From Podarcis pityusensis (Eukaryota): a stretch of DNA of 64,000 nt. Below, one piece after another: positions 10,827 through 58,150 of the stretch. A program made the position numbers and the translations under genes. The DNA is taken from assembly GCA_964106645.2 (NCBI GenBank), contig OZ067051.1. One strand, 5' to 3'. The notes below the pieces were generated by a model that saw only the letters and a list, made by a program, of their open reading frames with translations, did no database searches and had not been told where the DNA came from. The stretch's first letter is position 1, and each line of letters starts with the position of its first letter.

Positions 10827-13800
10827 GTAAGCCCAGCCTTCAAGAATGCATTCAGATGATTGAAAGTGGTTTCGCTTTCCATGTGGGAGGAGGTGGAGGG
10901 GGAAGTTCACACACGCACGCAGTGCAGCTTATTCATTCACTTTCCAAAAACAACCCTCATCGAGACGTTTTGAAACAATGCAGAAAGACCTGTTTGCCAG
11001 AAGCAACAGTGCAATGATTTTGTGCAAGCAGTGTCACCAAGCCCTTATGTGAAAGTGCTTTCAGTGGGGTGGGGATTATCATTGTCACCATGTCAAGGGG
11101 TGTCTTAGTGAAAGCCAAATGGAGTGTCTGTGCAACTGTGGCACATCCCTCACTGTTAGGGGTGGAAAGGGATTGGAAGGGATGAGCAGGGATTGGAACA
11201 GGATTGTGCAGCCGCTGTGGGATTCAATCCTGTCCTGCTCATTGGCTGACACTACCAGTGATGGGCATGCGATCTCGCAGGTCAAAGTGCAACCCCTGGT
11301 AGGCCAAGGTGGGCCCGCAAGCCAGAGGCTCTCCACCCCTCCCCTATAGTGTCAAGACGCATATTCCGTAGTCTCCAATTGCAAGAATGTCCCTATTTTC
11401 TGTGGGATGTATTATTAAACATTCCCACATTTTCATCTGAGGAATTTTGGAGGGTATGCACCTCCTCACAGCCCGATTGTTTGGGGCAGGGGTTTTTGAG
11501 CCACAAGAAGATGCTGATGGTGTGTGGATGCCCTATCAAGACTGAGTGCTCAAAGCGGGGCGACTAAATGCCTGCTGTGGAAATAGCCTCCGATTCCTTG
11601 GCAAGGGGGTGGGGATCTTCATCCCCTTGCTAGGGATGTCCTACTGTAGGTGACCCATAAGCAAACACCTGCAATGACCAGAATGACCACCCAAAATCCA
11701 CAAGTGGTCAGCACTAGAAGTCCAAAGTTCAATCACAGGGAAGGCCAGGAAGTTGGAATTGGGGGCTTTTAGGCCCGAGCTTCAGAGCACAGCTGCAGGT
11801 GGAGATGGTTCTGACCGAGGCACCTAGATTTAGTAGGTTAGATGGGTTTTGTTTTTTCGGGAGGCAGGCCTACCCACCTCCTCTACCAGAATCAAATATA
11901 TTTCAGTTGTATTGTGGGGTAGGGGACAGATGGGTCTCTGCATCATGCACCCCATCCTGAGCAGCCACATTTGTCTCACCTGTCTCACCTCCAGCTTCAG
12001 CTTGTGGGAATCTCACCTGTTTTGCCGACTACATCCAGACCTTGACATGCATGTGGGGAAATGACCCCCATACCTCCAGCAGAGCTCAGTACCATCTCAC
12101 AGCGACATGGTATGTATGGATGTGGAAGAAGACATGCCGTTGACCCCAGCCCCCTGGAACTTTAGGGCTGCCCCCATGACTTTCACAGGGTTCGGGGGCA
12201 GAATATCGTTCTCTGTGGCTCCCAAATCCTGGCTTTGCCTGGGAGTGGGGCAGGAGTGAATGGCTCCCTTCTCTGCTAACCCCTGGGGCTCCTTGGTACA
12301 CCTTTGTGGACATACTTAACCAGCTGTTTCGGCTGTAGCTGAGTCTGCTCTCTAGCTAATGCTGGTCAGGCTTGTGCCATCAGACAACCCTGCTGCACAT
12401 CTGTGGTGGCTGTGTCTCCTCACAGCTGCCAGGATGGAAGCCACTTTAGCCGCTGAGCCAGAGGGCAGCTCTCTGAGGCCCTCCTTGGCCACTGCCAGCT
12501 CCCTTCACGCCTTCAGCTTTCCTTTCCTTTAAGTCCTTCTGCATCTGGAATGACTAGCAGAGTTTCCCAAAGTTGGGTCTCCAGCTGTTTTCAGACTACA
12601 ATTCCCATAATCCATGACCACTGGTCCTGCTAGCTAGGGATGATGGGAGACCCAACTTTGGGAAATCTTGGACTAGAGCAAGACAGTTTGGATTTGGGGG
12701 GGGGGGGGGTGTGAAGGCTAAGGCAGCCCACCCCAGCCAGCAGGTTCATTCCAGCAAGTGGCTGCTTGGTAGAATGGGGAAAGTGATGAAGCTGGTAGGG
12801 TCTCCATGGGCCATGCAGGGCAGCGTCCTCTTTTTTTAAAATGCAAATTTAATCTCTTTAATTTTTTAAAACATAATCCCATATTCCCAAATACAAAACG
12901 GGTATGCTAAACATTAGGAGGAAGACGCCCACTGTTGCTCATTCTTATCATGGAAGTTCATGGTTTCTCATTATGTCTGAATTGGGCTTAAAAATAGTAA
13001 GTTTGATGGTTTTCAGTGCAGTTGATTTGATAGATCTTGTTAAAAATGGTATTGGAAAATAATTTTATATACAACATTTGGAAAGTCAGGTACATTTAAA
13101 ACCAAGACACAAATGTTTGCTAGTTCTGAATGGTTTGTATCTGTAAACAAAGATCTGTCTTTAAAAATTTGAGCAACAATTTTGAGAGGGAATCTCAAAA
13201 CAATTTCATTTGTAGTCTCCTGTAGTAAAACCAAGCATACAAAAAGAACAGGCCCCATATGCTCATCACCCTTGACAAACACCTGAAACCAAACTACATT
13301 TGAACATAGTAATATGAAAAAAAGAATAGCACTTCCACCACACAAGCTCTTGCTTTGTTTCCAATATGAATTCATCATCCAAAAATTAAAAACAGAGATC
13401 AGTCTTATTTACACATTTTTCCTATTTGTCACCTAATCTCATCAGGATTTAAAGTGAATTAAAATGAATGGGGAACTTCAGTCATCGAAAACTTTGCATC
13501 CCAGGAGAGTAATTTCAGAACATTTATCTTTATTAATTGCGGGTGATAATTGTTTTTCCACTCCCCAGCTACATGTACAGAGTGTCTATACTGTAATGTA
13601 TTCTCAGTTATCTGTTATTTTAAAAGTGTGCAGTATCAGGAAAGCCAGCTCATCCAAATAAGTACTGGAACACCCAAAGACTGGGGCATTAAGGAAACTG
13701 GGAACAAAAAAATTGAAAGCATTCATACCTCTGTAATTCTAAAGGTCATTGTGTAGTTAATAGGAACTGCAAGTTTGTACCTGCTCACAGTAAAAGACTT

Positions 13801-16800
13801 CATTGACAAGCAAAGATATAATGTAAGACAACTGGTCAGTTCAGGAGGCTGTTGGCAACTTATGGACACATACACACAGCTTGGACAGCAGCAGATATGA
13901 ACATATGTTTTTAAAGATGATCATTAAATGTTGCTTTTAATGAAACACCTCAAAACACGCTGATGATATCGTAATAGGGTAATGTATTTATATTCATTTG
14001 AATGCTGCCTGCAGTTGCTTCGAAGCACAGGTTAATAGAGGTCTAAAGGTTACCCTACATACATGCTTTTACAAATGAGTTAAAGACATTCTGTCTCCGC
14101 TTCCTTGTCACTGCCTGCAACACTGCTGTCTGTGGATGCTGTGACATCTTCATTGGTACCCTCGCCATTATCTCCTCTCTCAGCTGCTTCACCCTTTGGG
14201 CCACCCTCAGATGCACTGAACGCCTTCTGGGAGCTGGACAAATGTTTCCGAAGAATCTGCGTCAGATGCTGTTTTTGGCATTTCTGTATTTGGATCACCC
14301 AAAAACTTTTGCCAACCCTTCAGTCTCTCTTCCCTTTCTCTTAAAGTCTCCTTGACGTGATAATCTGTTACACCATCTCATGTCTCCACAGAGAGCTGAC
14401 GTCCACCAAACCATCTCCCGTTGAGTGCATCTTCTTCTTCTGCTTCTTTAAATGACACAGAAGCAACACCACCTGGGTGCCTATCAAATAAAATTACTTT
14501 CTTTACTTGTCCAAACTTTTCACATTCTGTCCGAAGATCTTCTCTTATCTCATTTAGCACTAAAGGATCTTCCTCAAAATCGCTTGGGTGGAACATGTTC
14601 CTGATAATGATAACACACTCGTGCTGCATTCGAACACTGCCATCTTTCTTCTCCGGTCTCCAATCCAGAAGTTTTTGTTGTTGAGACAGCTTCTTCTTGT
14701 AGTCTTTGCATTTCTTTTTCTTCTTGCTGGCATCGTACTCCCCCTTTGGTTGAAACTGTGCAACTTCCACATGCAATTTGTAGCCTCTAATTTCATTTTC
14801 ATCCAATAGTTTGAATGCTAGTTCAACAGATTCTCTCTTTAAGTAGCAGCAGAGCCCATCTCCTTTCAGATTTCCTTCTTTGTCTTTGTAAAGTTTAATT
14901 TTAGGCTCCTCTGTTTGTGGATCACGCATAACATTACCACATTTTGACATAACCTGCACGAACTCATCTTTTGTAATGTCTGGTGGTAAACCTGTCACAT
15001 ATACATTTGTGTTTCTCTGTTCTTCAACATGAAACCATCCTGCGTCAGGTTTTATTCTCTCTCCTTTTGGTTTAAGATCCGTTGCCTGAGATGCTTTTGG
15101 ACCTGTTGCCTGCTGGACCTGGGTAGCCTTTGAATCTGTAGGTGTTTTAGATTCAGTCTTTCTAAGAGATGCAGATGAGCTATCTGAAATTTCAGTGGGA
15201 AAGCCGTAGTTAGCATGATATGTTGCCAGGAAATCTTCAGTAACCTTTGGGAACCAGGCCTTCTTGTCGGGATCCCACTCGTACTGCGTCCCGTCCGCCA
15301 GGTCCGTGTACGTGAAAGGGTCCTCGCCGCCGTCCGCGCCCTCCTTGCCGTACAGCTCCTGCAGCCGCAGCTGCTGGTAGAACAACTCGTTCCGATCCGA
15401 GCCGCCAATACTCATGTTGCGGCCGGAGCCCAGGCTGACGAGGCAGGAAACGCGGGGCGACTCAGCAGCGCCTCACAAGCTAGGCCGCGCCTCAGGCGCC
15501 GCCGCCGCCAACTACTCGGGAGCCGCCAGACTGCACGAAGCCGCTCCGGGCTCCTGAGCGCGGGTCTCGCGCCACGGTTGCCCCAATTGGGGTCCTCTTG
15601 AGCATCATGGCTGCAGCTGGGGGACTTTCCTGGCTCACGGAGGGAGCAACCATGGCCGTCCCACACTGAGCAGGGGCATCTTTGGTGTTCGCAGGGACTG
15701 CGGAGAAGGCGGCAACTGCTCCTTCACTTCCAATGGTGCTGCCGCCGCCGCCGCCGCCCGATTCACCTGCTTTGCAGAGCAAAGTATCTGCTTTGGGAAC
15801 AACAACTTTGAGGTGGTCGTGAAGCTGGGGGATGAGCAACAGCAAGTGTGTAAGAACGAGTTTGTCTTCCAAGAACACTGTAAGTATGGAGGGGGGGTAG
15901 GACTCTGTGTCCGTCTGGACACGTGAGTGGGACTGGGAGGAGGAGGACACACGCAAGGGCTGCTGAGAAAGGGGCTTGTTGCAGCCGGGCTCAGAGACCC
16001 TTCCTCACTTACGGGTGTGGTGGTGGCATTTTTTAAGATTTGGGTTTGTTTACAAGTATGAAGGCAAGGAGTTTTCAAGCTCCTACAGCCAGCTAACCTT
16101 GGGCTGCTTAAACAACCTGGGGCTTTTAAAATGTTTCGACGGGGTTATTCTCCATCTCCACCCCGCCCCCAGCCATTATGTATTTTGTGTTTTTCTGTTG
16201 TAAACTGCCCTGGAATCTTCGGATGGAGGAATGAATGAATGAATGAATATGAATGTGAATGTGAATGAATAACCCACTGCCTTTCATTCAAGCCCAGCAG
16301 CCCCAGATGCTTTCACCTTGCTCCACTTGGAGGCTGGAGGGACATTGCAGGGGCTTCCCCACACAAGTACCCCCTGGGGATTTGGGGGTGTCACTGCTGC
16401 TTCACCCAGTGGGTGGGGGCCAAGTCCTGTCAGCCAGATGCCCTCAGGAGCCCACTTTGACTCTTTCCACAGTTAAGCCATCCCCGCCGTTCAGCCTGAG
16501 GGCTATTGTCTCCCCTGAGGGCTACAACCTCTCCTGGAGCACCATGTACCAGCAAGATGAGTACTTCTACCTGGACACGGAGCTGCAGTATGAGTTGCGC
16601 TACCGGCAGAGGGGACATCCATGGCAGGTAAGCCAGGAGGCAGGGCCAGCCTGAGCTGGATGGCGGCAGGCACCATTTGCCCAGTCAGGCCCTCAGTGGC
16701 TGGCTGGCCACCCTGGAGCTCAGCCCCAAAGTTGCTTCTCTGGACTTGGGCTTCAGGGGCACTGGGAAGTCATGGGGCTCTTTCAGGATCATTTGAGTAA

Positions 16801-19538
16801 CTCCTCTGAATTGCTTTGAAGGTGGCAGAGGTAGGGAGCGTTTCCCAGAATTCCTTCCAGCCCTCTGGCTTCTTCCCTTTCCTGCAGGGACACAACCATC
16901 TTCTGCAGTACACCGAGACCTTGTGGCTCCCCCAGGAGTTCAAAGGGGACACAGACTACGAACTCCAGGTTCGGGCGAAGCCAAGGGAAGACTCCTTATA
17001 CCAGGGCGCTTGGAGCGACTGGAGTCCCAAGACGACCTTGAGGACGCTGCCAAGGGGTGAGTCCCCCCTCCCTCCTCACGAGGGGTCTTGGCTTCTGCCC
17101 ATATAAGGAGGGCTGAACCTTCCCATCAAAGGCCGTTCATAAGCCCCTCTCCCAGTCCAGGGGGGCCTTCTGCACCTTTGAGACCATGAATCCATGGCAG
17201 ATCAGAGGAGCAGCCTCTCTTCTTTCCTGTCAAGTAGACCCCCTCCTGCTACTCTGCTGTCCTAGGAGGGAGCTCTGGCCACAATCCCAGGGAAACTCAT
17301 CTTGACTGAGCCCCAGAGCCCAGCCCACCCTGGCAACCCCCAGTGGAGCTACCAAGAAAAGTAACTGATATTACTGGTTTCCTTCCTTAGCCGTGGAAGA
17401 CAGGCCAGGAGACAAGTGGTCCTTGTGGTTCCTGCTGGTGCTCAGCCCATTGATTGCTCTCGTGGTCTTCCTGGGCTGGCAGCACCAAAGGTGAGTGTGG
17501 GAGTTGGATGCTGGATGCTGGGGTGGCGGGGCTGCCAAGAGCTTCTGGTTGGCCGCAGGCTGCCCACTTCCCAGCTGGATGACCTACCCTACACAGAGAA
17601 AGGAAATGGTGGGTGGGGGATGCATCACCTCCCAAGAAGCCATGCTCAAGTAAGTCTACCAAGCCCACTCCCTCTTTCCCTCAATCTGCAGAGCACCAGC
17701 CATGGGCTTGCTTGCTTGTGGCAGTGGGTGGCTGAGTTCCCTAGAAAGAGAAGCCATGAGGTTCCTTGGACAAGGCAGTTGCTGGGCAGCAAGTCTGAGA
17801 CGCCAATGCCTCAAGGCCTGGCCATGCTCCTAGTCCCTCCCGTGGGTAGTCGGTGAAATGAAGTTTGGGCACTCCCCACAAAAGGCCTCCAGCTCTCCTT
17901 TCCCTCTGGCAGGTTGTGGAAGAAGCTGGACATCTTCATCCCCAGCCCGGCCCCCTTTTTCCAGCCCCTCTACCTGATCCACAATGGAGACTTCAAGGTA
18001 CAAATGACTCCTACCCACCAGACAGGAGGGGGAGGGGAGGGTGTTGGAGTGGCTGTTTGAACTGACCCACAGGCACTTACGGATCCTCCGGGCATCACCC
18101 AAGTCAGAAAGTTCCTGTATGTGTTTGGGGGGGGGGTCCTGCCTCAAGTGCCAGGAGCCTTAAGGCATGGTCGGTGGGAGGGAGGACATCAGGCTGCCTA
18201 ATATTCTGCAGAGAAGTTGGGGACTTGGTGGAGGGGTGGGGGTCTCCTCTTGACACAAGGCCTGCCTTCTCCCCCACCCCAGGCTTCCTCCATGTCCCCT
18301 CCCCACAGCAGGGGCTCTGCCTGCTTCTCTCTCTCACCCCAATTCCCATCCCTATGAGGCAGGATCCTCTCTGAAAAAGTGAGCTCTGGGCAGAGTCCTG
18401 TGGAAATCACATAGCCCTTGGAGCCACCAGGTGCATTACAGGTGGGGAGGAGTTTCCTCTTGGCACAGAAGGATGCCAGGAGATGATGGGGTAGCTGATA
18501 AGAGGGCACTTGGTTGCACAGTCTGGGCTGGAGGAAGGAGCTCCTCTCCTGGGATATGTCCTTCTGAAGGTATGCAATTCCTTCCATTCCCCAGATGGTT
18601 AAAAAAAGGCCCACACCTGCTGTTTCTCTGGCCACAGCCTGCTGACACCTCTCTCTCTCTCTCTCTCCCTCTCTCCTGTGCAGAAGTGGGTGGGCGGCGG
18701 CATCTCCTGCCCCAGAGCCATGCTGGACAACTTTGAATGGAGCACAGCCCTGCTGGATGTGTTTGGGATGGGCCAAAAGCCCCTTCCCCCCAGCCCTGCC
18801 AAGGAGCAGCAGAGTGGGGGCCATGCACCCTCCCCTGCTACATTTGCTTCCCACCTGCCTGGGAGCCAGGATGCCACCCATGATCAGGCCTACGGCCACC
18901 TCTCCATTGACACCGTCACTGTGGCTGGAGAGTTTACCGCCTGCTGCCCGCGGTGCAAGGGGGCCACAGGATGCTGTGCTCTGGAGGAGGGCCAGGACGA
19001 AAGAGACGCCTACCAGGGCATCCTCTTCAATGAGGGCCAGATCTCCGAGAATCTGCTCCTGGTGGACATGGTCCCACCAGCAGCAGCCCAGAGGAAGGCT
19101 TTCTTGTCTGCCTTGGAGTCCTGGTCAGGAGACCCTCTCCTCGAGACTCTTACTCCTTTCTCGCAAGCTGGCGGCTCCCTGGGCAGAAAAAGGTCTGGGA
19201 AGGAGGTGGACTTTTTTGGTTCGCCTCCTGAGCCCTGGACCCTGGAAGGCCTCTTGTCTCCAGAGGAGGAGGACATAGCTTCCTACCGAGACCTGCTCTC
19301 TCCTGACTTGGATGCAGATGGGGACATCCTTGCCAATGGCCTGGATCTGGATACCATTGACAGTGGCTTTGCAGAGTGTGACTGTGGGAGCCCTGTGGAC
19401 TCTGAGTTCGAGAGGAGGCCGACAGGCTGTGGGTCTGAACCCCTCAGTGTGGAAAGCGGAGAGACAGGGGAAGAGCTCCTGCCCAGCTATGTCAAGCAGT
19501 GGGTCTCCTCCTGTCACAACAGAGCGCAGCCCAGTTAA
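10775..19538 (+). CDS. IL21R: Interleukin-21 receptor, 571 aa: join(10775..10826,11995..12109,15695..15879,16473..16627,16888..17056,17391..17490,17913..17997,18684..19538)
   Basis: All phases are compatible (1716 nt). Signal peptide, CFADYIQTLTC, WSDWS, TM, Box1 IPSPAPFFQPLY, YGHLSIDTVTV, GLDLDTIDSGF and terminal SYVKQWV (human SYLRQWV). Confidence 0.95.
11995..12109 (+). CDS. IL21R: IL21R coding exon 2
   Basis: (A)SACGNLTCFADYIQTLTCMWGNDPHTSSRAQYHLTAT(W)|gtatgt; alternative in-frame acceptor at 12000. Confidence 0.9.
12558..12670. mobile_element. Palindromic hAT-type MITE
   Basis: Inverted repeats tttcccaaagttgggtctcc / ggagacccaactttgggaaa; gactag on both flanks. Confidence 0.7.
12833..15591 (-). 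pseudogene. HTATSF1: Processed (intronless) HTATSF1/Tat-SF1 retrocopy: 5' UTR 15591-15416, ORF 15415-14378, disrupted C-terminal coding region to 14080, 3' UTR to the poly(A) remnant at ~12837
   Basis: YEWDPDKKAWFPK, RRM1 (NVYVTGLPPDIT; GDGLCCYLKRESV) and UHM (IIRNMF...GRWFGGR). No introns. TGA replaces W in VET*DGVTDY; a frameshift follows downstream. ATTAAA signals, A tail, 8-bp TSD GTCCTCTT at 12825-12832 and 15592-15599. Confidence 0.93.
14378..15415 (-). CDS. HTATSF1: Uninterrupted 345-aa ORF of the HTATSF1 retrocopy (coding status unknown)
   Basis: ATG-to-TGA open frame covering the N-terminal region, RRM1 and most of the UHM. Confidence 0.4.
   Translation of the reverse strand: MSIGGSDRNELFYQQLRLQELYGKEGADGGEDPFTYTDLADGTQYEWDPDKKAWFPKVTEDFLATYHANYGFPTEISDSSSASLRKTESKTPTDSKATQVQQATGPKASQATDLKPKGERIKPDAGWFHVEEQRNTNVYVTGLPPDITKDEFVQVMSKCGNVMRDPQTEEPKIKLYKDKEGNLKGDGLCCYLKRESVELAFKLLDENEIRGYKLHVEVAQFQPKGEYDASKKKKKCKDYKKKLSQQQKLLDWRPEKKDGSVRMQHECVIIIRNMFHPSDFEEDPLVLNEIREDLRTECEKFGQVKKVILFDRHPGGVASVSFKEAEEEDALNGRWFGGRQLSVET
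15620..15630 (+). promoter_or_regulatory. Canonical NF-kB site GGGGACTTTCC, with adjacent E-box CAGCTG at 15614-15619
   Basis: Exact match to the Ig-kappa enhancer kB sequence; function untested. Confidence 0.45.
15695..15879 (+). CDS. IL21R: IL21R coding exon 3
   Basis: ttcgcag|G; DCGEGGNCSFTSNGAAAAAAARFTCFAEQSICFGNNNFEVVVKLGDEQQQVCKNEFVFQEH|gtaagt; phase 2 to phase 1 bridges the flanking exons. Confidence 0.88.
16473..16627 (+). CDS. IL21R: IL21R coding exon 4
   Basis: (F)KPSPPFSLRAIVSPEGYNLSW...ELQYELRYRQRGHPWQ|gtaagc. Confidence 0.93.
16888..17056 (+). CDS. IL21R: IL21R coding exon 5 (WSXWS)
   Basis: ...DYELQVRAKPREDSLYQGAWSDWSPKTTLRTLPR|gtgagt. Confidence 0.93.
17391..17490 (+). CDS. 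IL21R: IL21R coding exon 6 (transmembrane)
   Basis: VEDRPGDKWSLWFLLVLSPLIALVVFLGWQHQ(R)|gtgagt. Confidence 0.9.
17913..17997 (+). CDS. IL21R: IL21R coding exon 7 (Box1)
   Basis: LWKKLDIFIPSPAPFFQPLYLIHNGDFK|gtacaa. Confidence 0.93.
18684..19538 (+). CDS. IL21R: IL21R terminal coding exon
   Basis: A (CT)n pyrimidine tract precedes cag|KWVGG...SYVKQWVSSCHNRAQPS*. Confidence 0.95.
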   Translation, partial: KWVGGGISCPRAMLDNFEWSTALLDVFGMGQKPLPPSPAKEQQSGGHAPSPATFASHLPGSQDATHDQAYGHLSIDTVTVAGEFTACCPRCKGATGCCALEEGQDERDAYQGILFNEGQISENLLLVDMVPPAAAQRKAFLSALESWSGDPLLETLTPFSQAGGSLGRKRSGKEVDFFGSPPEPWTLEGLLSPEEEDIASYRDLLSPDLDADGDILANGLDLDTIDSGFAECDCGSPVDSEFERRPTGCGSEPLSVESGETGEELLPSYVKQWVSSCHNRAQPS

Positions 19539-39100: not shown

Positions 39101-42100
39101 TCCGAACTTTGTGGGTTGGATTCCTTTAGCCTTCAGATCTCTGAAGACCTGCTGTGATCTGAAAGACTTTGGCTTTTATAGATTCAAGTATAGGCTGGGA
39201 CCTTAGGGTGAAGGGTGTGTAATTAATAATAGTAATTATTTGTGAAGCAGTAAGGTGGCAACTCTTGACTCTTGAAATTCAGGTCATGAGGTGGCCATTT
39301 TTGTGTGTTTTGTACATGCTTGATCTATGGAATCACAGCAATGTAGCATAGTTGCCATGATCGCCAGTAGGTGCCTGTAGCCCCCCCTTTTTTGTGGGGA
39401 GCAGCACTCCTGAACTTTGGCATATTTCCAACTAGTATACGGGGATGTGTGGCTAATAGATTGCAAGCTGCAGCATCATGTACATTCTTTCTCTTTCCTT
39501 CAGTACGATGCTGTTCCAATCCAGTCCAGCGTGGTTTTATGTTCCTGCCCATCACCATCAATGGTGAGGAACCAGGCAGATCCCAGCCCTTCACCTGTTG
39601 CTGCTCCCTGTGGCAGCAGGCAGGGACTGAGCATGGAGGGCACAACGGCTGAGCCAAGGGGGAGTGAAAAATCCTTGCAGCAACCTCCACAGCCTCGAAA
39701 GAAACGCCCAGAGGACTTTAACTTTGTCAAGATTCTGGGCGAAGGGTCTTTCTCAACAGTGAGTATCTACTGCAACTGTGGGTTCTGGGAGTGTCATGGC
39801 AGAAGCCAGCCGTTTGGCCTTTGTGTATCATTCAGACAGTTCTCTCCCCCTCCCCCCAGCATTCTCTAAGGAAAGCACTTTGCCCACCAGCTTGCCCGGA
39901 GGAAGGTTCTACTTGGCTCTGCAGGAGGTCAGAGAAATAATGTTCACAGCTGTTGGCTGTTATGGTACTTTTTGTCCTCTTGTGGCCCCTGCAGTCTCAC
40001 ACCAGACTTTTAGTGAGATGAGGTTACCACCTCTGTCTGTCCTCATTGAACCCCTGCTGTTGTGCACATGTTCCATTGACAGGTTTTGACTCTCCACCCC
40101 TGTGATGTGTCATTGCTTGCTATAGCTGCCCCCCCCCAAAAAAAATCAAAAACAAAAAACCTCTTGGGTACATTAGGATTTCTGGATTTTATGACTTCTT
40201 ACAAAATGATGGTTTACCCCTTCCCTTCTGGACATATAGGACCAGATTCACCTAACCAAGCACACTAGCAAAGGCCAGTGCAGTGACTCCCACTCCCCCA
40301 CCCCCCCGAAAAAAATCTGCCCTAGGAAGTTGGGAGAACCCCCCAGAACAGTTCCTACATGTTGTCTTTAGGGAGTGCTGGGAATGTGTATGAGACTGGC
40401 TGATGTAACTGGTGTGGATAGAGCAATGGTCCCTTGGGGCCCTGGGCTCCAATGGGCGGAATTCCCCTTTTCCACTCACCCCCTCAGTAGGTTGGAGACC
40501 TTTTGTGGGATCTTAGTTGCGTGCAAAACATAAGGCAGTTCTTATTTCCCATTTAACAGGTCTTCTTGGCCAGAGAATTGTCTACCTCCAGAGAATATGC
40601 CAGTGAGTAACCCTTTCTTCATTAGGGTGTGGATTTTAGATGGATGATGTCCTGTCCTCATAATGGAGCCAAAGGAAGTCTAGGTTACGCCTGCTGCTGC
40701 TTTTGTGGGAAGCTGCTCTCTAAGTGTAGCTTCATAGTCAAGCAGAGCAGATGAGTTTGCAGCTTCACTGTGTATTTCCCAAGTGTGTTGTAACTTATTT
40801 GTCTTTTTAAAAGTTAAAATTCTGGAGAAGCGCCACATCATAAAAGAGGGCAAGGTGCCGTGCGTGAATAGGGAGAAAGATATCATGTCTTGCCTGGATC
40901 ACCCTTTCTTTGTCAATCTCTACTTCACCTTTCAGGATGATGAGAAGCTCTGTATCCTTCTGGATGGAAATATTTCATGGTGATATTTGTTGGGATAATG
41001 TGTGTGGAAAAAAGAACCATGTTTCTTCATTTGCTAACTCAATGATGTTTTCCAAATAGTTGTACCAGAATTCATAGGCAGGATACAAATGTGAAAAATC
41101 TTGACTCTTGTAAACCTGGCAGAGGACGAATCTTGGGCCCCCCATGGGTATGACAGTGCATTAAGGCACCCCACTCAGCCTCCCTCTCCCACTTTCTATT
41201 TTTTAATTGATATTTTTTGTTTGATGAGATTGCCTAGTTTTTGTGGTAGGAGGAGGTTTGTTGTTGTTTTTACTGTGTTTTATTTGTCTCTAGGTGTCTG
41301 TGCTTTGCCTTTTAGGTGTATGGGGCTGTTTCTGAATACCACCAGTTTTTCTTCTGTTGAATGTGTATGTTGTGGTGTCCACAAGTTTCTTTTATCTCTA
41401 AATGTGCCCCTTGTCCCAAAATGATTGGAGACTAAGTTAACCGCTGCACCATATTGGCCCGAATATAAGCTGCACACTTAAAATTCAAGGTTTATTTACA
41501 GGTGCTGGTGCCGGCTGCCCCCCGTTCAGGGCGGTAGTGCCAGGAGGCAGGCATGGAGCGCGCTCAGAGCCCAGCACCAGCACCGGCTTGGGTAGCTGAG
41601 TGCCTGCCTCTGAGCTGGTTGGCGGTACGCGTGCTCCCTAGCTTCGTGGGGGGGGGGGAGGCGTGCGCAGGCTAACCAGCTAGGGAACATGCGCAGGCTA
41701 ACCAGCTAGGGAGTGTGTGCACCGCCAACCAGCTGGGAGGCTGCGCATGCTCCCTAGCTGCTTGGCGGGGGGGGCAGTGGCGTGCCCACCTCCCTGCTGG
41801 TTGGTGGTGCGTACGCTCCACCCCCACCGCCAACCAGCTGGGAAGTGGGCATGCCTCTCCCCCCCCATCAAGCAGCTAGGGAGCGCACACTGCCAACTAG
41901 CTGGGAGGTGCGCCACTCCCCCCCCCCCCGCCAAACATGCGCTCCCCAGCTGCTTTCAGCAGCATATGGTAAAAAAATCACCAATATAAGCCGTACTTTT
42001 AACTTTTCAGGGTCCGAAATTGGGAAAAAAGTGTGGCTTATATTCTGGCCAATACGGTAAATCTTTGGCTGTGTGCAGAGTCCAGCCTTCTCTTTCCAAG

Positions 42101-42472
42101 CACATCGCCACCTATCCCTTCTAACATTGCCTCAGATTATCTGCATTTGTGTTTTAGGGTCCAGAGATTCACAGTATAAATTATCCTTAACTTAGTGTTC
42201 AGATTTTGGTCTTAGCTATGCCAAAAATGGAGAGCTTCTAAAATACATCCGGAAGATTGGCTCATTTGATGAGACATGTACTAGGTTTTATACTGCTGAA
42301 ATTGTGTCTGCATTAGAGTACTTGCACGGAAAGGGAATCATTCACAGGTAATGTAATGAATTCAAATCCATCTATTCTTGGTTCTTGTTGCTGTTGTCAT
42401 AGTTACTGTTTGTTGCCCTCCTGATAGATTTCTCCTGGTGGCTCTAAACTCAAAAGTTCCCATAGCAAGCAG

Positions 42473-42508
<36 letters not shown>

Positions 42509-45500
42509 TGTCTTAGGTACCTTTGTTGAGACTTCCTGGCTTTCCTGCATTCCTCACCTGTGGTGACACCAGCCTAGTTAATTTGGCACAAGGCATTGGC
42601 TGCCTTGGAGTACAAAGTATCCAGCAATGGATGGGGATTTTGAACAGTTGAAATCTTTCTTTCCCTCCCTCTGTCGCCTTTTGCCTTGGTTTTTTTTTTT
42701 TTGTAGAGGAGAGGGACGTCCCATTCTGCCAGGTCGCTAGCAGAGTAAATGTAGCGCCTCTTCCGTACTGTTTGCCTGCCTGCAGTAGAAGGCAGAAGAG
42801 AAGAACTCAGCATGATCTAACATTCAGATTTGCTCCATGTCTCCCTGCCGCCTAGTCCCCTCCTAATCATTTGGGAAGCAGCTCCCAATACCAGGCAGAG
42901 GAGCAGGTAGGAATCTACTTCAAACCTACCAGAACAGGCAGAGACAGTAAGGGCCAATGGACAGGCTTAATTTCCTAGATAGCTGCTGTTACTTTAGAAG
43001 CCTGGGGGAGAATCAGCTTTCCATGGTTAGGGCCTTACATTGACAACTCGGGATTTCCTCAGGGGACACAAATAGTTGTTGAGGGCATGACTCTGTGCAT
43101 GCATGGCTCATTCCCAGCTGTGCCTTTTGCAGGGACCTGAAGCCAGAGAACATTTTGCTCAGCGGAGACATGCACATTCAGATTACAGACTTTGGGACAG
43201 CAAAAGTATTGTCTGCAGACAGCAAGCGAGGTGCGTGCAATTTCTCAACCTGTCAACGACTAAAGCAACTTTCTGCAGTTTCAAATTCCTTAAAACTGAC
43301 CACAGTATCCGATGCTACGTCTCAATGGGGTTTATGACGGTTCTTTACTGAGTAAAGGCAAAATGGCTATACCGCAGGAGATGACATCAGAGAGGAAACC
43401 TGCGGGGTTACTAAAATGGGGCAGCTGAAATCAGGTGATAGTGGGGTGCCCATGGGGTGAAATATTGCTTGGTAATGCTTAGTGTTGAGGGGGCGGGGAG
43501 CGTTTGAAAAACAATAGTCATTATGTAATATTGGATGCCTACAAATATAGTTAAATAAAAGCTGATGAAATTTGAATTGCACAACAAAAATGAAAGCATT
43601 GTTTCCAAATGAACACATCCAAGCCTTCATGAGGACCTTGTAAGGACATTTTTAATGATTAAATGCTTACTTGCATCTTGGTTTCTTCAGCACGGGCGAA
43701 CTCCTTTGTTGGGACAGCACAGTATGTGTCTCCAGAGCTGTTAACAGAGAAGTCTGCCTGCAAAAGGTGAGTTACATACGTTGCCTTTGTAGAGGGGTTG
43801 TATGACTGAGAGAGAGATCTTCAAGGCAAATGGGTGAGGCCTATTTCCATTAGGGTGTACCCCATTCTTGTGCCTCAGTGCCTCGTGCATAATCAACACT
43901 GAAACATTTTAAACAGCATGACAATGGCTCTTAGGATTGCTTTTGTCTATTTTTCTGCAACACGAATAGTTCATTAACCCTTGGATTTAACATAACATAC
44001 CAGCAAAACATGAGACAAGACGTTCTAAGCATTGTCATCATGTTTTCTTGCTGCAATCTCTTGCCGCTTTACTTGGTTTGTACATTAAACAAGACAGAGA
44101 ATTAGAAAGCTCTTTGTGGCCATTTAATTTATTTTTATTTTTTTAAGCACCTATTCAGCTTGGGATCATCTTCGAAGGGCTGTATTGGGACTTAGGCCTG
44201 GGCGATATATCAATATATTGCCCAGGACTGGTCCTTCCTCCAGCAGGCACTGCTAACAGAGGGACTCGGGAGCAGTGGCAGTTTCACCGGCGATATACCA
44301 CTGAGTGAAGCCGACATCGCGGTCTGCTCCTCATACCAGTCCCGGGCAATATATCAGTATATCACCCAGCCCTCATACAACGGAGAGGGAGAAACAAGCT
44401 CTATTGGCGAGGCGCCAATACAGCTGTTTCCTCCCTATGCATCTTTAAACTGCTTGGCTGAGGAGTGTGTAGCTACCCTTTCCTCAGTTGAGCAGTTAAA
44501 GGAGCACCCAGGACAAGTTGCATTGTCCTAACCCACGACTCTGGGTGAAACTGCCTCAGCACTCGAGGTGAGAGCTGGGGCAGTTTCACCCAGTGTTTTG
44601 CGGGGAGAGGACAATGCATCTTGTTTTTTCAGCATCGCAGTATGTCACCAAACTGCTATGTTTGGCTTGCGATACACTGCGTTTTTGAAAAGCTGATATC
44701 GCTCAGCCCTATTGGGACCTTGCTGAAGTCTCTCTTCTGCTGTTTCCATCCTTCCTGTGGGAGCCTAACCCAAGATGAGGAAATACGTAGATCTGGTTCA
44801 GGAAGTGTACAGTGGCAGCTTCTGCATCAGATCCTTCGGAAACGCCCAGGGATAAACACCTTTTCTTCAAGGTGCCTTTACCAGGCATTCCAAGTAAATT
44901 AGAGTCTGATACTCCAGGGGAATTTGCAGCTCTGCCTGAAAGGGAATCTGTTGTATGCTTTTGTTGTGGGTGCCTGAACTAGGAGATGGTGACATTGGAT
45001 ATGCCCACAGTGCTAACTCTTCTGCTTTGCCTTCTCATCTTTTTGCCTGTCTTCATGATGCAGTTCGGATCTGTGGGCTCTTGGCTGCATCGTATACCAG
45101 CTTGTAGCAGGATTACCACCATTCAGAGCCGGGTAAGACTTTGGAGCACACCAGTGCCAGACTTCCCACCAAGTTAGTGTTTGCCCGTGTACCCATAGGA
45201 TAGTATAGTTTCAACCTTGAAGTTGACTTATAGGAAATGTTTGCATAGATGTAACTATACTTTTCCCCATCCTTTTTGCAGAAATGAATATCTCATATTC
45301 CAGAAGATAATCAAATTGGAGTATGAATTCCCAGAGAAGTTCTTTCCGAAGGCAAAAGATCTCGTAGAAAAGCTTTTGGTAAATGAATTGTATTGTCAAA
45401 AGTTTCCAATGCATGCTAGAAGCCTCCAGTCAGATAACTTGCACAAAATGTGGTACTCATTGCTGCTGTTCTACCCCAGCCGGTGTTTTGGCCCTCTAGG

Positions 45501-48500
45501 CTTCAGAGTCCCACCCCCCCCAACTGTTACCCCTTTGACTTGTTCCCTGTCCCTCCTGCTTTTCCACAAAGCATCTTCGGGGCCTTGTTTCTTAGTCCCC
45601 ACCGCCTTCCCATGGGATTTTCTGCCCTTTCGCTTCCCAGCCTCACCCCGACCCACAGATATACTCCTCTATACCTTGTGTTGAGGTATTAATTTCCAGC
45701 TAAGGCTCCCCTACTTTCCCTCTCTTCATGGAACTAGACTGTTAGCTTTGTTCCCAAACTAGCTGGAACTTTTCAGTCAGTTGGTGTTCAAGGTTTTATC
45801 ACCACAAGAACCATATGATACAGATGTCAGCCTCAAGGCCTGCAACCAGCATTCCTTTCCTTCCTGCCTGTCTCCTTCCATCTCTTTTCTCTTTTAATTG
45901 GCCACTTGCCTCCCACTTGCTCCAGGAAGTGGAGCAAAACAAGTTGACTTCATGACCAGTTTCTTGAGATGCTCTCTGTCCTGTTGCTTTATGCCAGTTA
46001 AGCCTATACAAGCCTTTGTTTCACGGGTTATTGCAAAAGCCCCTTGTGAATCACCATGAAGGGGTGCCTGGAGAAGAAATCTCAATTGTCCTCCTCCTTC
46101 ATGGAGTCTCGCTTCTACTAGGTACATCAAAGGTCCCATATTAACAGATTGTCCGCAGAGGTGGACTGCCTGAGTCACCAAGATCTGAAATGACAGGGAG
46201 TGGAGCCCGAGACGCCCCCTGAGTCTTTCCAGGGAAAATGTAACTGTGTCTTCACTTAACCAGGTCCAAGATGCCACCAAGAGGTTAGGCTGTGAAGAAA
46301 TGGGAGGATATGAGCCCTTGAAGGCCCACCCCTTTTTCGACTCCATCACCTGGGAGAATCTGCATCTTCAGACACCACCCAAGCTCACTGCATATTTGCC
46401 CGCAATGTCAGAAGATGATGAGGATTGCTATGGAAATGTAAGTGCAGGCTTTGATACTGATGCCAGGGGAGATCAAAGGTTCCTGAAAGGCAGTTTGCCC
46501 TTGTGAGTGCCTCACATCCTTCTCCATCCATCTCAGTAGTCGCAGTAGGAGTGCCCATCTTGATCTACCATGCTCCATAGAGGTCTTTTCAATACCCTTG
46601 CATCCTTCAAGGGAGAAATAGGCCTGTAGTTCTTGCTCTGGTCTAATCCTTGGCTCCTTTGCCACCCTCACTTTCACTTGTAAAGTTCACATGACCAGAG
46701 GGTGAGAGCAGATACTGAGCTGAAAGCAGAGCTCCTTCCCAGCTTCCTCCCTCTCTCGCAGAATTTCTGCATGCAAGTGGAGGGTTAAAGAGTGATACAT
46801 GCATGTACTGTGAGGAGATAATGAAACAAAGCAAGTAAAAGGAAATGTTCTAATTTCCAGCTGGTTAAAAATATGGGATCGCTGGTGAAATTTGTGAAAG
46901 AGATAGAGGCTTTAAAATTTGGAGACGGGGATTTTTCTGATACATAGATTTAATCAATCAAGGCAGGACTATTGATCATTCAGAAATCAGGAGAAATTTG
47001 AATCCAACACCCCCCTTGACTTGAGTGTCTTAACGTAAGATGGGTAATAAAACAAATTATGTAGATAGTGAATCAAGAAATGAGGCTGCAATCCAAGTCC
47101 CCTCATCTGCCATATCGTAGCATGGGTAGCATGGAAGGATAGGGCAGAGATATCCTTCTGCTGTTCAGAGTGGCTTCAGCAGCACTCCTCCAGCACCACT
47201 GAATTTCTCATGCTGCCTGCCAAATGGGGTATTCTGGAGAGGGAGGACTGAACTGGCTCCACTGCTGTCAGCAGTCTCAGGGTGGATTGTAGGGTGGAGC
47301 AAGGGTTTGCTTGTCCCCACATGTGTCCTAGTTGACATGTGCAATGCTGCCCATCACACTCTACTGTGCCTTACCCAGCTTGGGTAAGGATTGCTCTGAG
47401 GAAATTAGCTGATTTGGAGAAATTAGGTAAAACAACCCTTTATTACGATGCAGAGTGATATCCAGTGTCTCAGTGTCATACTCAATAGTAGACCCATTGA
47501 AATCATTCTACTGGAGCCTCTTGATTTAAATTGGCCTCTTATGACTTGCCAATCACCCATAAAATTTAGTTAAATAGCTGCAGAATATAGGTAAAATCAT
47601 TCCGGTGAAAATCTTGGGAAGCCTACTGATTTTCTTAAGGATAACTGGAAAAGAAAATAGAAAAATTCCAGTACAAACATATGCTGGAAGTGTCAACAGG
47701 AGAAGGGAGGTGATTATTATTAATGCTACTATTAAAAAGTGGAAGCAGATCAAGCATTTTACAGTCTATAGATTATGAAACCTCTCTAGGTCCTGTCCTT
47801 ACTAAATTGTGTTGAAGCCTCATGAGACAGAGCATAAGGAATTAGTCCCATTTGTGAATTGAAGCAAGAATGTTTTTAAGCAAAGAAATGGAGAATATCA
47901 CTAACAGCAGAAGTGGCCAGAAAATGAGTGGGATTTTGCCTTGATAGCAAAAGTGATGTACTGAGTAAAATAAAAGATGGCCACACAGTTACCATATTTT
48001 TCCATGTATAAGACGCCCTCATGTATAAGACGATTTTAAAGCCTAAATTAATAAATAAATAATTGCAACATTCTGTGTATAAGGACCCCCCCCCCCCAAA
48101 AAAAGTTAACTTATTTTTTTGGGGGGGGGAAATATAGTCGTATATTGGAAGCTGTTTGTTTTCTTACAGATGAAATGTGTTGCTTTCCTCAAGTATGGGC
48201 TTACAGTGTTTATACAGCGTAAACACATGTACTAGTAGCATTTAAAGAGAGCATGCAGAATAATAAATAAATAATATAACATTGGTTATATCCATTGTTA
48301 GTCACATTCATTGGCACATCAAATTTAGGCCCATTAATGTTACTGGATTCACTCTTGAAGACAACTTGGATATTATGTTGGCAGAAATATTGGTCAGAAG
48401 AAAAGGGTAAGATGCCACATACTTTCCCCCCATTTATTCTGAAAACTGTCTTTCTTGTTTTGATAGTATGACAATCTCCTGAGTCAGTTTGGCTGCCTGC

Positions 48501-57189: not shown

Positions 57190-58150
57190 CCCCGCTTCGC
57201 CCGCAAACTCAGGCAGGGAGAGCACAGCGCTTCCTGCGCGAACGGTCTCCTAGCAGACATAGAGCTCCCCCCCCCCACCCGCCCTCCATCGGCGCGGAAG
57301 AAGAGACCAGGCGAGGCGGAGGTTAGATGATAAAAGCGGCCGGCAGGCAAAGAGTTAATCTGCGCCTCCGCCCCTCATCCCGCTGGCGCACCCAGCAAGC
57401 AGAAGAAGCCCGTAGAAGGGGAGGGGCCGCTCTCCTCCCTCACTTCCGGACGGCAGGGGGGCGGAGCCACATCGCCGCCGCCGCACATGCGCTCTCGGAG
57501 AGCCTGCTGGGACAGCGGCCCGGAGGGGAAGCCTTTCGAGAGCGGACCTTCCGGCGCGCAGCCAGGATGGCGGCGGAGGGCTCCTGCGAGCTGCCGGTGG
57601 TGCCGGCGGCAGGGCTTGGCCTGTCCGGGGCTCCCTCCGCCTCCTGCCGGCGCTGCAGCAGCAGCTCCAGTTCGTCGTCGTCGTCCTTCTCCTCGCCTTC
57701 GTCGTCGTCCTCGTCGTCGTGCGGGGGCTGCCTCGCTCCCCCGGCCCCTCCCGTCGCGGGCGGCGTGCCCGGGAAATGGGTCCGGCTGAACGTGGGCGGC
57801 ACCTGCTTCCTCACCACCCGGCAGACGCTCTGCAGGGACCCCAAAAGCTTCCTTTTCCGCCTCTGCCAGGCCGACCCGGACCTCGACTCCGATAAGGTGA
57901 GGGGGCGCCGCCGCCGCATTCTGCAGGTGCTCAGGGGACAGGCCGGGCGAGGACCCCATAGCTTGGCCGCCCCACCGCGGGCACTAGGCTGGAGGGCCCC
58001 CGCTTTGCTGCCCCGGTTCCTCCTGGAGTGCCGGGCCTCTGCGTGAGAAAGAGCCGCTCAGGCCACCTGTGTCACGGCGCCGTCGTTACCGTGAAAGAGG
58101 CGCCCACCGTCAGGTTCTCGCTCTTTTCTGGTCGGTTACCCATCTCCCGC
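57190..58150. promoter_or_regulatory. CpG island / KCTD5 promoter
   Basis: CpG-dense, with GC boxes, ETS CACTTCCGG at ~57441 and NRF1-like GCACATGCGC at ~57483. Confidence 0.8.
57567..57896 (+). CDS. KCTD5: KCTD5 exon 1
   Basis: aggATGg MAAEGSCEL...DSDK|gtgagg. Confidence 0.93.

Follow-up and report, generated by a model that had tools for sequence, protein, structure and literature searches.

Structure of the HTATSF1 retrocopy and its host intron

The window analysed here is a stretch of 64,000 nucleotides from Podarcis pityusensis (contig OZ067051.1), in which inspection of the sequence revealed an intronless copy of HTATSF1 mRNA (copy A; 12825-15599, minus strand) with a target-site duplication (TSD), an ATTAAA signal and a short A tail. 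The host gene is IL21R: the exon at 16475-16630 matches IL21R in PDB (E=6e-11; next family, E=0.12), and one contig from run X1 splices 12108 to 15694 (GT..AG), skipping the whole of copy A. The host intron is therefore 3585 bp long and is 77% occupied by copy A, which lies 94 bp from the IL21R acceptor, in agreement with the initial annotation, which had described an antisense insertion filling about three quarters of an IL21R intron and ending 95 bp from the acceptor. Pfam searches found no domain in the IL21R tail, the IL4R tail or an exon-like stretch beside a second retrocopy (copy B, see below), and a sigma-70 promoter scan was set aside as irrelevant to vertebrate DNA. The features of the locus are as follows.

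12001..12108, plus strand: IL21R exon upstream of the insertion (start placed from the AG at 11999-12000)
12109..15693, plus strand: host IL21R intron, GT..AG, 3585 bp (spliced contig, run X1)
12825..12832, minus strand: TSD, 3' copy (sequence)
12833..12837, minus strand: poly(A) remnant (sequence)
12838..14088, minus strand: copied 3' UTR, ATTAAA at 12853-12848 (sequence and alignment)
14089..14377, minus strand: dead remainder of the coding sequence (17-bp frameshifting deletion at 14218/14217; parental stop reads GAA)
14378..14380, minus strand: premature TGA (parent TGG, W350; alignment to parent)
14427..14428, minus strand: point at which 12 bp are deleted in frame (VCKQ of the parental UHM; alignment to parent)
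14381..15415, minus strand: residual 345-codon ORF (RRM1 and damaged UHM), neutral (orthologous copies frameshifted at 15322 and 15306)
15416..15591, minus strand: copied HTATSF1 5' UTR, CpG-rich (aligned to parent exon 1 on C20)
15592..15599, minus strand: TSD, 5' copy (sequence)
15694..15879, plus strand: IL21R exon directly downstream of the insertion (joints 12108-15694 and 15879-16473)
15251..16000, strand not assigned: CpG island covering the retrocopy 5' end, the adjoining intron end and the IL21R exon (observed/expected 0.89 and GC 0.67 in 15251-15750)

Alignment to the nine-exon parent showed that all eight parental exon junctions are fused in copy A, with the introns absent. The TSD is a perfect 8-bp repeat (15599-15592 and 12832-12825) that reads AAGAGGAC on the minus strand and GTCCTCTT on the plus strand, the insertion is flanked by TC|AAGA, as expected from the L1-like target (tc/aaga) proposed earlier, and the ATTAAA is followed by a five-A remnant running into the AA of the TSD. 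Sequence and parent alignment together thus uphold the claim of a full-length mRNA copy with duplication, signal and tail.

The ATG of copy A at 15415 opens the 345-codon frame that had been claimed as preserved, ending at 14381, and RRM1 is recognisable within it (PF00076, E=1e-11). The lesions named in the initial annotation were recovered on alignment: codon 350 is TGA where the parent has TGG, four residues are lost in frame from the UHM, and the frameshift expected near 14210-14260 is the 17-bp deletion at 14218/14217. SF3B1 is bound through the UHM (PMC11482624), the interface from which the four residues are missing. Damage at conserved sites, also claimed, stood only in part: RHER-to-QHEC and HPDG-to-HPGG are genuine changes specific to copy A, but FQLK-to-FQPK is no lesion, FQPK being the parental sequence both in this genome and in all lacertid parent proteins aligned. 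Residues invariant in all four outgroup squamates are altered in copy A (e.g. I161N, L201F, R264Q, R267C and D315G). Similarly, the product does lack a tail, but one of only ∼100 residues, the lacertid parent protein having 451 aa, and not the long human acidic tail.

The parent gene and a second retrocopy

The HTATSF1 parent (P) is found on C20, a 51.1-Mb sequence that also carries LRRC8A and a bacterial-type, likely mitochondrial, MetRS. In lacertids, lrrc8a and mars2 both mark the Z (PMC6534595), and the Z of Podarcis lilfordi measures 50.7 Mb (PMC10214862); from the marker genes on C20 we infer that the parent is Z-linked. In some parent-type contigs the depth was between a third and a half of that in the flanks; this would fit Z hemizygosity but was rejected as evidence, as contig depth is not a copy number.

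Copy B lies on C7, which is likely autosomal, and has an intact ORF of 456 codons. Annotated copy-B proteins were found for P. lilfordi (456 aa), Podarcis raffonei (453 aa) and Zootoca (456 aa), with none listed for Podarcis muralis or Lacerta agilis. Derivation of either copy from the other was rejected: copy A reaches 39 bp further 5' on the parent and copy B a few bases further 3'.

Selection on the parent and the two copies

Differences were assigned by majority among the parent, copy A and copy B, a procedure that assigns CpG losses wrongly where they occurred in parallel (as at site 15248), and the neutral synonymous expectation for codons 1-349 was taken from the 3' UTR mutation spectrum. 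An apparent stop at codon 11, a double change scored base by base, was counted as non-synonymous. On this basis, copy A carries 22 non-synonymous and 8 synonymous changes, against a neutral expectation of 8.5 synonymous in 30 (p=0.64, omega ∼1.08), whereas the same test gave 7 and 13 for the parent (omega 0.21, p=7e-4) and 20 and 23 for copy B (omega 0.34, p=4e-4). Outside exon 1, copy A has 21 non-synonymous changes, where the length of its own UTR branch predicts 26 (p=0.19), and copy B has 13, where 31-35 are expected (p<=3e-4). Copy B therefore shows fewer amino-acid changes than neutral, but evolves much faster than the parent; between two Podarcis species, 26 of 453 copy-B residues differ compared with 1 of 451 in the parent. 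The estimate for copy A is drawn from only 30 changes, with which weak constraint (omega 0.6-0.8) is still compatible.

Copy A in related organisms

The insertion is present at the identical site in all three DNA runs examined (organisms H, I and A), in which contigs cross an insertion junction and no empty-site joint was seen. Its origin probably predates the Podarcis/Lacerta/Zootoca split. The reading frame is not shared. A 2-bp deletion interrupts codon 37 in organism H (15306; depth 16.7/16.7), and a 1-bp deletion interrupts codon 32 in organism A (15322; depth 23.3/23.3). These would truncate the frame to 58 and 120 aa, respectively, and each was seen in one contig from one individual. 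Both contigs were typed as copy A, with 2 other letters in organism H (6 expected for the parent, 19 for copy B) and 5 in organism A (9 and 21 expected). A 1-bp deletion at 15050 in organism I (78.3/238.9) belongs to either copy A or copy B. An organism-A contig reads across the 14218/14217 site with no more than 4 gap letters, and organism A therefore shares the 17-bp deletion. The two nearest protein clusters, 14 members in all, include no copy-A-like protein.

These data bear directly on the proposal that copy A is a truncated retrogene, encoding a 345-residue protein with RRM1 and a damaged UHM, perhaps a dominant-negative Tat-SF1. An ATG followed by 345 open codons, the recognisable RRM1 and a frame survival that is improbable under neutrality all speak for it; the chance of 349 codons without stop or frameshift is ∼0.01-0.03, with indel rates taken from the AT-rich UTR. 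The proposal nevertheless fails because dN/dS against the parental gene is near 1 and the 5' ORF is disrupted by independent early frameshifts in two of the three organisms, at codons 32 and 37, in addition to the altered conserved residues, and we consider it very improbable. That the frame stayed open in this lineage is likely due to chance, and its low survival probability is tentatively ascribed to ascertainment and an overestimated indel rate. A further observation that counts against a pseudogene is the tail past the stop, with 3 non-synonymous and 5 synonymous changes (p=0.02, in one of six regions tested).

Copy A is, with high confidence, a processed pseudogene that is spliced out with its IL21R intron and whose protein is unselected; the decaying pseudogene put forward initially as one of its alternatives is supported by neutral substitutions and by the frameshifts in relatives. 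The HTATSF1 mRNA was reverse-transcribed, likely by L1-type machinery, and inserted antisense into the IL21R intron, and it is unlikely that copy A yields a protein.

Transcripts over copy A

The putative RNA runs examined, X1 and X9, are 2 of 18 that were guessed to be RNA, and both come from organism A, in two studies. Among the runs listed, none is recorded as RNA, and 6 more are of unknown kind, with contig sets the size of a genome. Over copy A, the listed pieces from X1 are of parent type and leave 15140-15640 uncovered, and X9 gave one unbroken parent-type contig; none of the contigs from either run was of copy-A or copy-B type, and such contigs prove presence only, not absence. IL21R transcripts showed the normal splice only, in the one run covering IL21R exons, where contigs show neither starts nor strand.

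The CpG island of copy A

Only three CpG-island blocks occur in the window, one of which (15251-16000) spans the 5' end of copy A and overlaps an IL21R exon. Of the 28 parental 5' CpGs, 4 are lost in copy A versus 22 in copy B (Fisher p=2.4e-6), and over the island of copy A, 4 of 39 CpGs are lost, with 22 of 238 non-CpG sites differing from the parent. CpG retention is only an indirect sign of low germ-line methylation, from which the island is likely to have remained free.

Retention of the island is also the sole positive evidence for the antisense regulation of IL21R suggested at the outset. In this scenario the protein is dead, but the candidate island would be an intragenic promoter tuning IL21R, as PPP1R26P1 does for RB1, either by transcribing the 5' region of IL21R in antisense or by starting a shortened IL21R transcript at the exon 94 bp from copy A. 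The contrast with copy B, the CpG and non-CpG counts, the rarity and placement of the island and the mammalian precedents for intronic islands of retrocopy origin with effects on the host gene (PMC4122923, PMC1796624) are consistent with such a role. However, CpG loss in the island and body of copy A does not differ significantly (4/39 versus 5/16, p=0.10), and an excess of W-to-S changes in copy A (7 versus 4) is equally explained by GC-biased conversion. The island sequence is not conserved either, organism A having 37 bp replaced by 4 at 15484-15522 and 8 of 119 letters different, and organism I 5 of 103. The adjoining IL21R exon is itself CpG-rich (observed/expected 0.58), and the site may therefore have been protected prior to insertion. 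We regard a promoter role as unlikely; for the pseudogene, the likely unmethylated state is probably a passive effect of sequence and GC-rich neighbourhood.

Two copies with opposite fates

As a pseudogene, copy A has little import beyond that of a datable insertion marker for wall lizards, and copy B is the better lead. The coding pattern of copy B suggests that it is probably a functional out-of-Z retrogene, although its maintenance for reasons of Z dosage or female function is doubtful. The two copies derive from one likely Z-linked gene; A kept the CpG island, B kept the protein, and the pair permits a direct test of the effect of insertion site on the methylation and survival of a retrocopy.

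Read jointly, Z-linked HTATSF1 may have exported two copies that divide its parts between them. The C7 copy, its island lost and its protein kept, may be maintained by selection to back up a core splicing factor that is hemizygous, and the copy in the IL21R intron, its protein lost and its CpG-island promoter active, may modulate IL21R as a reptile counterpart of PPP1R26P1/RB1. If true, this would constitute an out-of-Z retrogene in a ZW vertebrate, but we find it hard to credit that copy B is functional and the copy-A island active together.

HTATSF1 is unmentioned among the best 25 of 802 literature matches. Searches for HTATSF1 with lizard found nothing, and those for lacertid retrogenes found none by title among the best 25 of 187 matches; RCPedia and Tables 15-16 of 10.64898/2026.06.26.734816 may list these copies.

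Comparison with known retrocopies

Copy A does not differ in kind from L1-made processed pseudogenes of housekeeping parents: like them it is a full-length mRNA copy without introns, has a poly(A) signal, a tail and a short TSD, carries disabling lesions, lies antisense in an intron and evolves neutrally. Its particulars are the retained parental 5' CpG island and a 5' frame that in this species is still open. At PPP1R26P1, in RB1 intron 2, the retrocopy-derived CpG island shows differential methylation and acts as the promoter of an alternative host transcript (PMC4122923, PMC3839921). Copy A is likewise a non-coding retrocopy with a CpG island in a host intron, for which both of these properties would be hypothetical. 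Mcts2, Nap1l5, U2af1-rs1 and Inpp5f_v2 are X-derived intronic retrogenes that are imprinted and likely protein-coding (PMC1796624), and the lacertid sex chromosome derives from the ancestral block that also gave rise to the mammalian X (PMC6534595). Copy A resembles these in its sex-chromosome parent, host intron and 5' CpG island; unlike them, its frame is not conserved. Genomic imprinting is not known in reptiles.

For copy B, the closest parallels are the out-of-X retrogenes PGK2 and PDHA2 (10.64898/2026.06.26.734816). All have an intact ORF on another chromosome (likely an autosome for copy B), a sex-linked housekeeping parent and a deficit of amino-acid change; copy B differs in its ZW setting and in evolving much faster than its parent. 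In published surveys, an out-of-Z excess was not found and Z-derived retrocopies in birds were mostly species-specific (PMC3242482; 10.64898/2026.06.26.734816). Copy B would be a conserved retrogene leaving the Z, a single case that does not overturn that pattern, and lacertids, whose Z and the mammalian X are homologous, are well suited to testing it.

Structure of copy A and its place in IL21R

Copy A, the HTATSF1 retrocopy on the minus strand at window positions 12825-15599, is the complete mRNA copy that the initial annotation described: it lacks introns, is flanked at both ends by the target-site duplication (TSD) AAGAGGAC and retains a polyadenylation signal and the 345-codon ORF, which runs from the ATG at 15415 to the TGA at 14378-14380. 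At the DNA level, copy A has 13 matches in the genome that the window comes from (G000), namely copy A itself, eleven pieces on chromosome C20 and one intronless copy on chromosome C7 (copy B, at locus L002); no HTATSF1 copies beyond these two and the C20 parent were found genome-wide.

12853-12848, minus strand: poly(A) signal ATTAAA of copy A, with a short A remnant also present
G000:C7:30179194-30181855 (L002:1501-4162), minus strand: copy B, a second HTATSF1 retrocopy with an intact 456-codon ORF

The eleven C20 pieces comprise nine exons, the last of which is split in two, and one short inverted match, and the spliced exons encode an intact 451-aa protein identical to a Podarcis lilfordi record. 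Compared with this parent, the 12-bp in-frame deletion in the UHM domain, the change of W350 to TGA and the frameshift (of 17 bp) were all recovered, but FQPK, previously read as a lesion of FQLK, is the state of the lacertid parents. Intron 2 of the parent (L015) has a GC-AG boundary. Stretches of 16, 19 and 58 bp are present in both retrocopies and missing from the parent UTRs; the 58-bp loss is shared by organism H, a related organism, but the stretch is covered by a transcript of another, organism A, so this loss is recent.

The assignment of the host gene to IL21R was upheld, with the exon at 16475-16630 matching IL21R structures at E=6e-11, versus E of at least 0.12 for other receptors. 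One contig from X1, a run of organism A, contains splice joints 12108-15694 (with GT..AG ends) and 15879-16473, the former showing that copy A is removed whole with a 3585-bp intron. Copy A makes up 77% of this intron and lies 94 bp from the acceptor, in line with the three quarters estimated earlier. The adjoining IL21R exon contains a GCC repeat (15745-15765) encoding seven alanines. From translations read by eye, we take the neighbouring genes (435-1709, 18603-19538, 39325-45684 and 57327-58046) to be an IL4R tail upstream, the IL21R tail, and PDPK1-like and KCTD5-like exons downstream; CpG islands extend over roughly 35.0-36.2 kb and 57.0-58.2 kb.

Age of the insertion

Contigs from three of six genome-sized runs (organisms H, I and A) were aligned to the window. 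Contigs crossing an insertion junction were present in all three organisms, and none contained an empty-site joint. At residues 52 and 117, copy A has lysines found in 4 of 4 outgroups, and its T93 and A97 each occur in 2 of 4, whereas the full-length parent proteins of lacertids (five in all, from three Podarcis species, Lacerta agilis and Zootoca) share other residues at these sites; the template of copy A is therefore likely older than the split of these lacertids. The 3' UTR branch length of copy A is 0.033. V100 and I121 (15118 and 15054) are common to both copies; at these sites the parents in lacertids all carry I and R, which also occur in 3 of 4 and 4 of 4 outgroups, respectively. Such sharing could stem from a template allele or paralog common to the two copies, or from the parent having reverted later.

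CpG island of copy A

Across the shared 5' UTR and exon 1, copy A has lost 4 of 28 parental CpGs and copy B 22 of 28 (p=2.4e-6). The retained island, one of three island blocks within the window, has an o/e of 0.89 and a GC content of 0.67 at 15251-15750 and continues into the IL21R exon. This retention suggests low germ-line methylation, and it favours the proposal that the island is active and regulates IL21R. We consider that proposal unlikely, however, since CpG loss within copy A does not differ significantly between island and body (4/39 versus 5/16, p=0.10), its changes show a slight GC-ward excess (7 versus 4 AT-ward) and the sequence is not conserved, 37 bp being replaced by 4 in organism A.

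Probable drift of the copy A coding sequence

The parent, copy A and copy B were aligned, and every difference was credited to the odd sequence of the three. Over codons 1-349, non-synonymous and synonymous changes numbered 22 and 8 in copy A, 20 and 23 in copy B, and 7 and 13 in the parent. Relative to a neutral expectation from the 3' UTR mutation spectrum, the dN/dS check proposed earlier gave an omega of about 1.08 for copy A (8 synonymous changes versus 8.5 expected of 30, p=0.64), with 0.34 for copy B (p=4e-4) and 0.21 for the parent (p=7e-4). Copy A is altered at residues invariant in 4 of 4 outgroup squamates and its UHM, which is described as the SF3B1-binding domain (PMC11482624), has lost four residues.

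The ORF is not conserved across relatives. The 5' frameshifts that the initial annotation had suggested looking for were found at full depth in two organisms: in H, 2 bp are deleted at 15306 (codon 37) and the frame would stop after 58 aa; in A, 1 bp is deleted at 15322 (codon 32) and the frame would stop after 120 aa. The contigs concerned depart from the window at 2 and 5 letters (expected: parent-type 6 and 9, B-type 19 and 21), identifying them as copy A orthologues. Organism A also shares the 17-bp frameshift. In organism I, one-third of the depth at 15050 carries a 1-bp deletion, which could belong to copy A or B, and every contig at 14378 has TGG; 14378 and 14427 are without cover in H and A.

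Of the two readings offered previously, these results favour the decaying pseudogene over the truncated retrogene, and that copy A makes a truncated protein is very improbable given an omega of about 1.08 and frameshifts at codons 32 and 37, even though two results count against a pseudogene: 349 codons free of stops and frameshifts have estimated neutral odds of 0.01-0.03 (an estimate that takes its indel rates from a UTR rich in AT and disregards the choice of copy A for its long frame), and 3 non-synonymous and 5 synonymous changes lie past the premature stop (p=0.02, with six regions tested in all). Copy A is thus very probably a processed pseudogene of the well-known kind. Reverse transcription of an HTATSF1 mRNA would have been followed by insertion at a TC/AAGA site, and the TSD and tail suggest L1 as the vehicle. 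By lying antisense, the copy likely left splicing and polyadenylation of IL21R undisturbed, and its coding sequence would since have drifted, breaking at different places in each lineage.

Copy B and the parent chromosome

C20 (51.1 Mb) carries LRRC8A and a bacterial-type MetRS, likely MARS2; both genes are named among lacertid Z markers (PMC6534595), and the Z of P. lilfordi is given as 50.7 Mb (PMC10214862). By marker genes and chromosome size, the parent is likely Z-linked, in a ZW system that lacertids are described as sharing (PMC8622242). A multi-exon MetRS-like gene occurs twice in tandem with matching scores at G000:C2:5903005-5920210, which may be a recent or an assembly duplication.

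Copy B is flanked by a 14-bp TSD that has decayed, no longer has the 5' CpG island and gains five residues through a 5-bp deletion at the stop. Its protein matches one from P. lilfordi at all but one residue and belongs to a cluster of three intact annotated counterparts (P. lilfordi, P. raffonei and Zootoca); P. muralis and L. agilis have no listed member in either of the two nearest clusters. Outside exon 1, copy B carries 13 amino-acid changes versus 31-35 expected (p<=3e-4), a test that leans to constraint if copy B is older than copy A or partly converted by the parent. It evolves far faster than the parent (26/453 versus 1/451 residues between two Podarcis species). Copy B is probably a functional, relaxed out-of-Z retrogene, judged from sequence comparison. 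The P. raffonei and Zootoca proteins share derived C-terminal residues (T for A near 390, VK for DN near 409-410) where copy B of this genome and of P. lilfordi has parental ones, a pattern that may reflect gene conversion by the parent in one lineage. A short exon-like stretch at L002:134-220 (plus strand), with no Pfam match, ends in a ATATCCTTT motif that resembles a minor-class (U12) donor; if it is an exon, copy B would lie antisense in an intron of a putative gene.

Comparison with known retrocopies

No published work on HTATSF1 in lizards was found, and supplements of 10.64898/2026.06.26.734816 may list copies A and B; section 8 of that source describes ZW-derived copies in birds as mostly species-specific, and a survey reports no out-of-Z excess (PMC3242482). 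The main points of note for copy A are its retained CpG island and its intact sister, copy B. Retrocopy islands acting on host genes are described in mammals (PMC4122923, PMC1796624), and copy A resembles them in anatomy.
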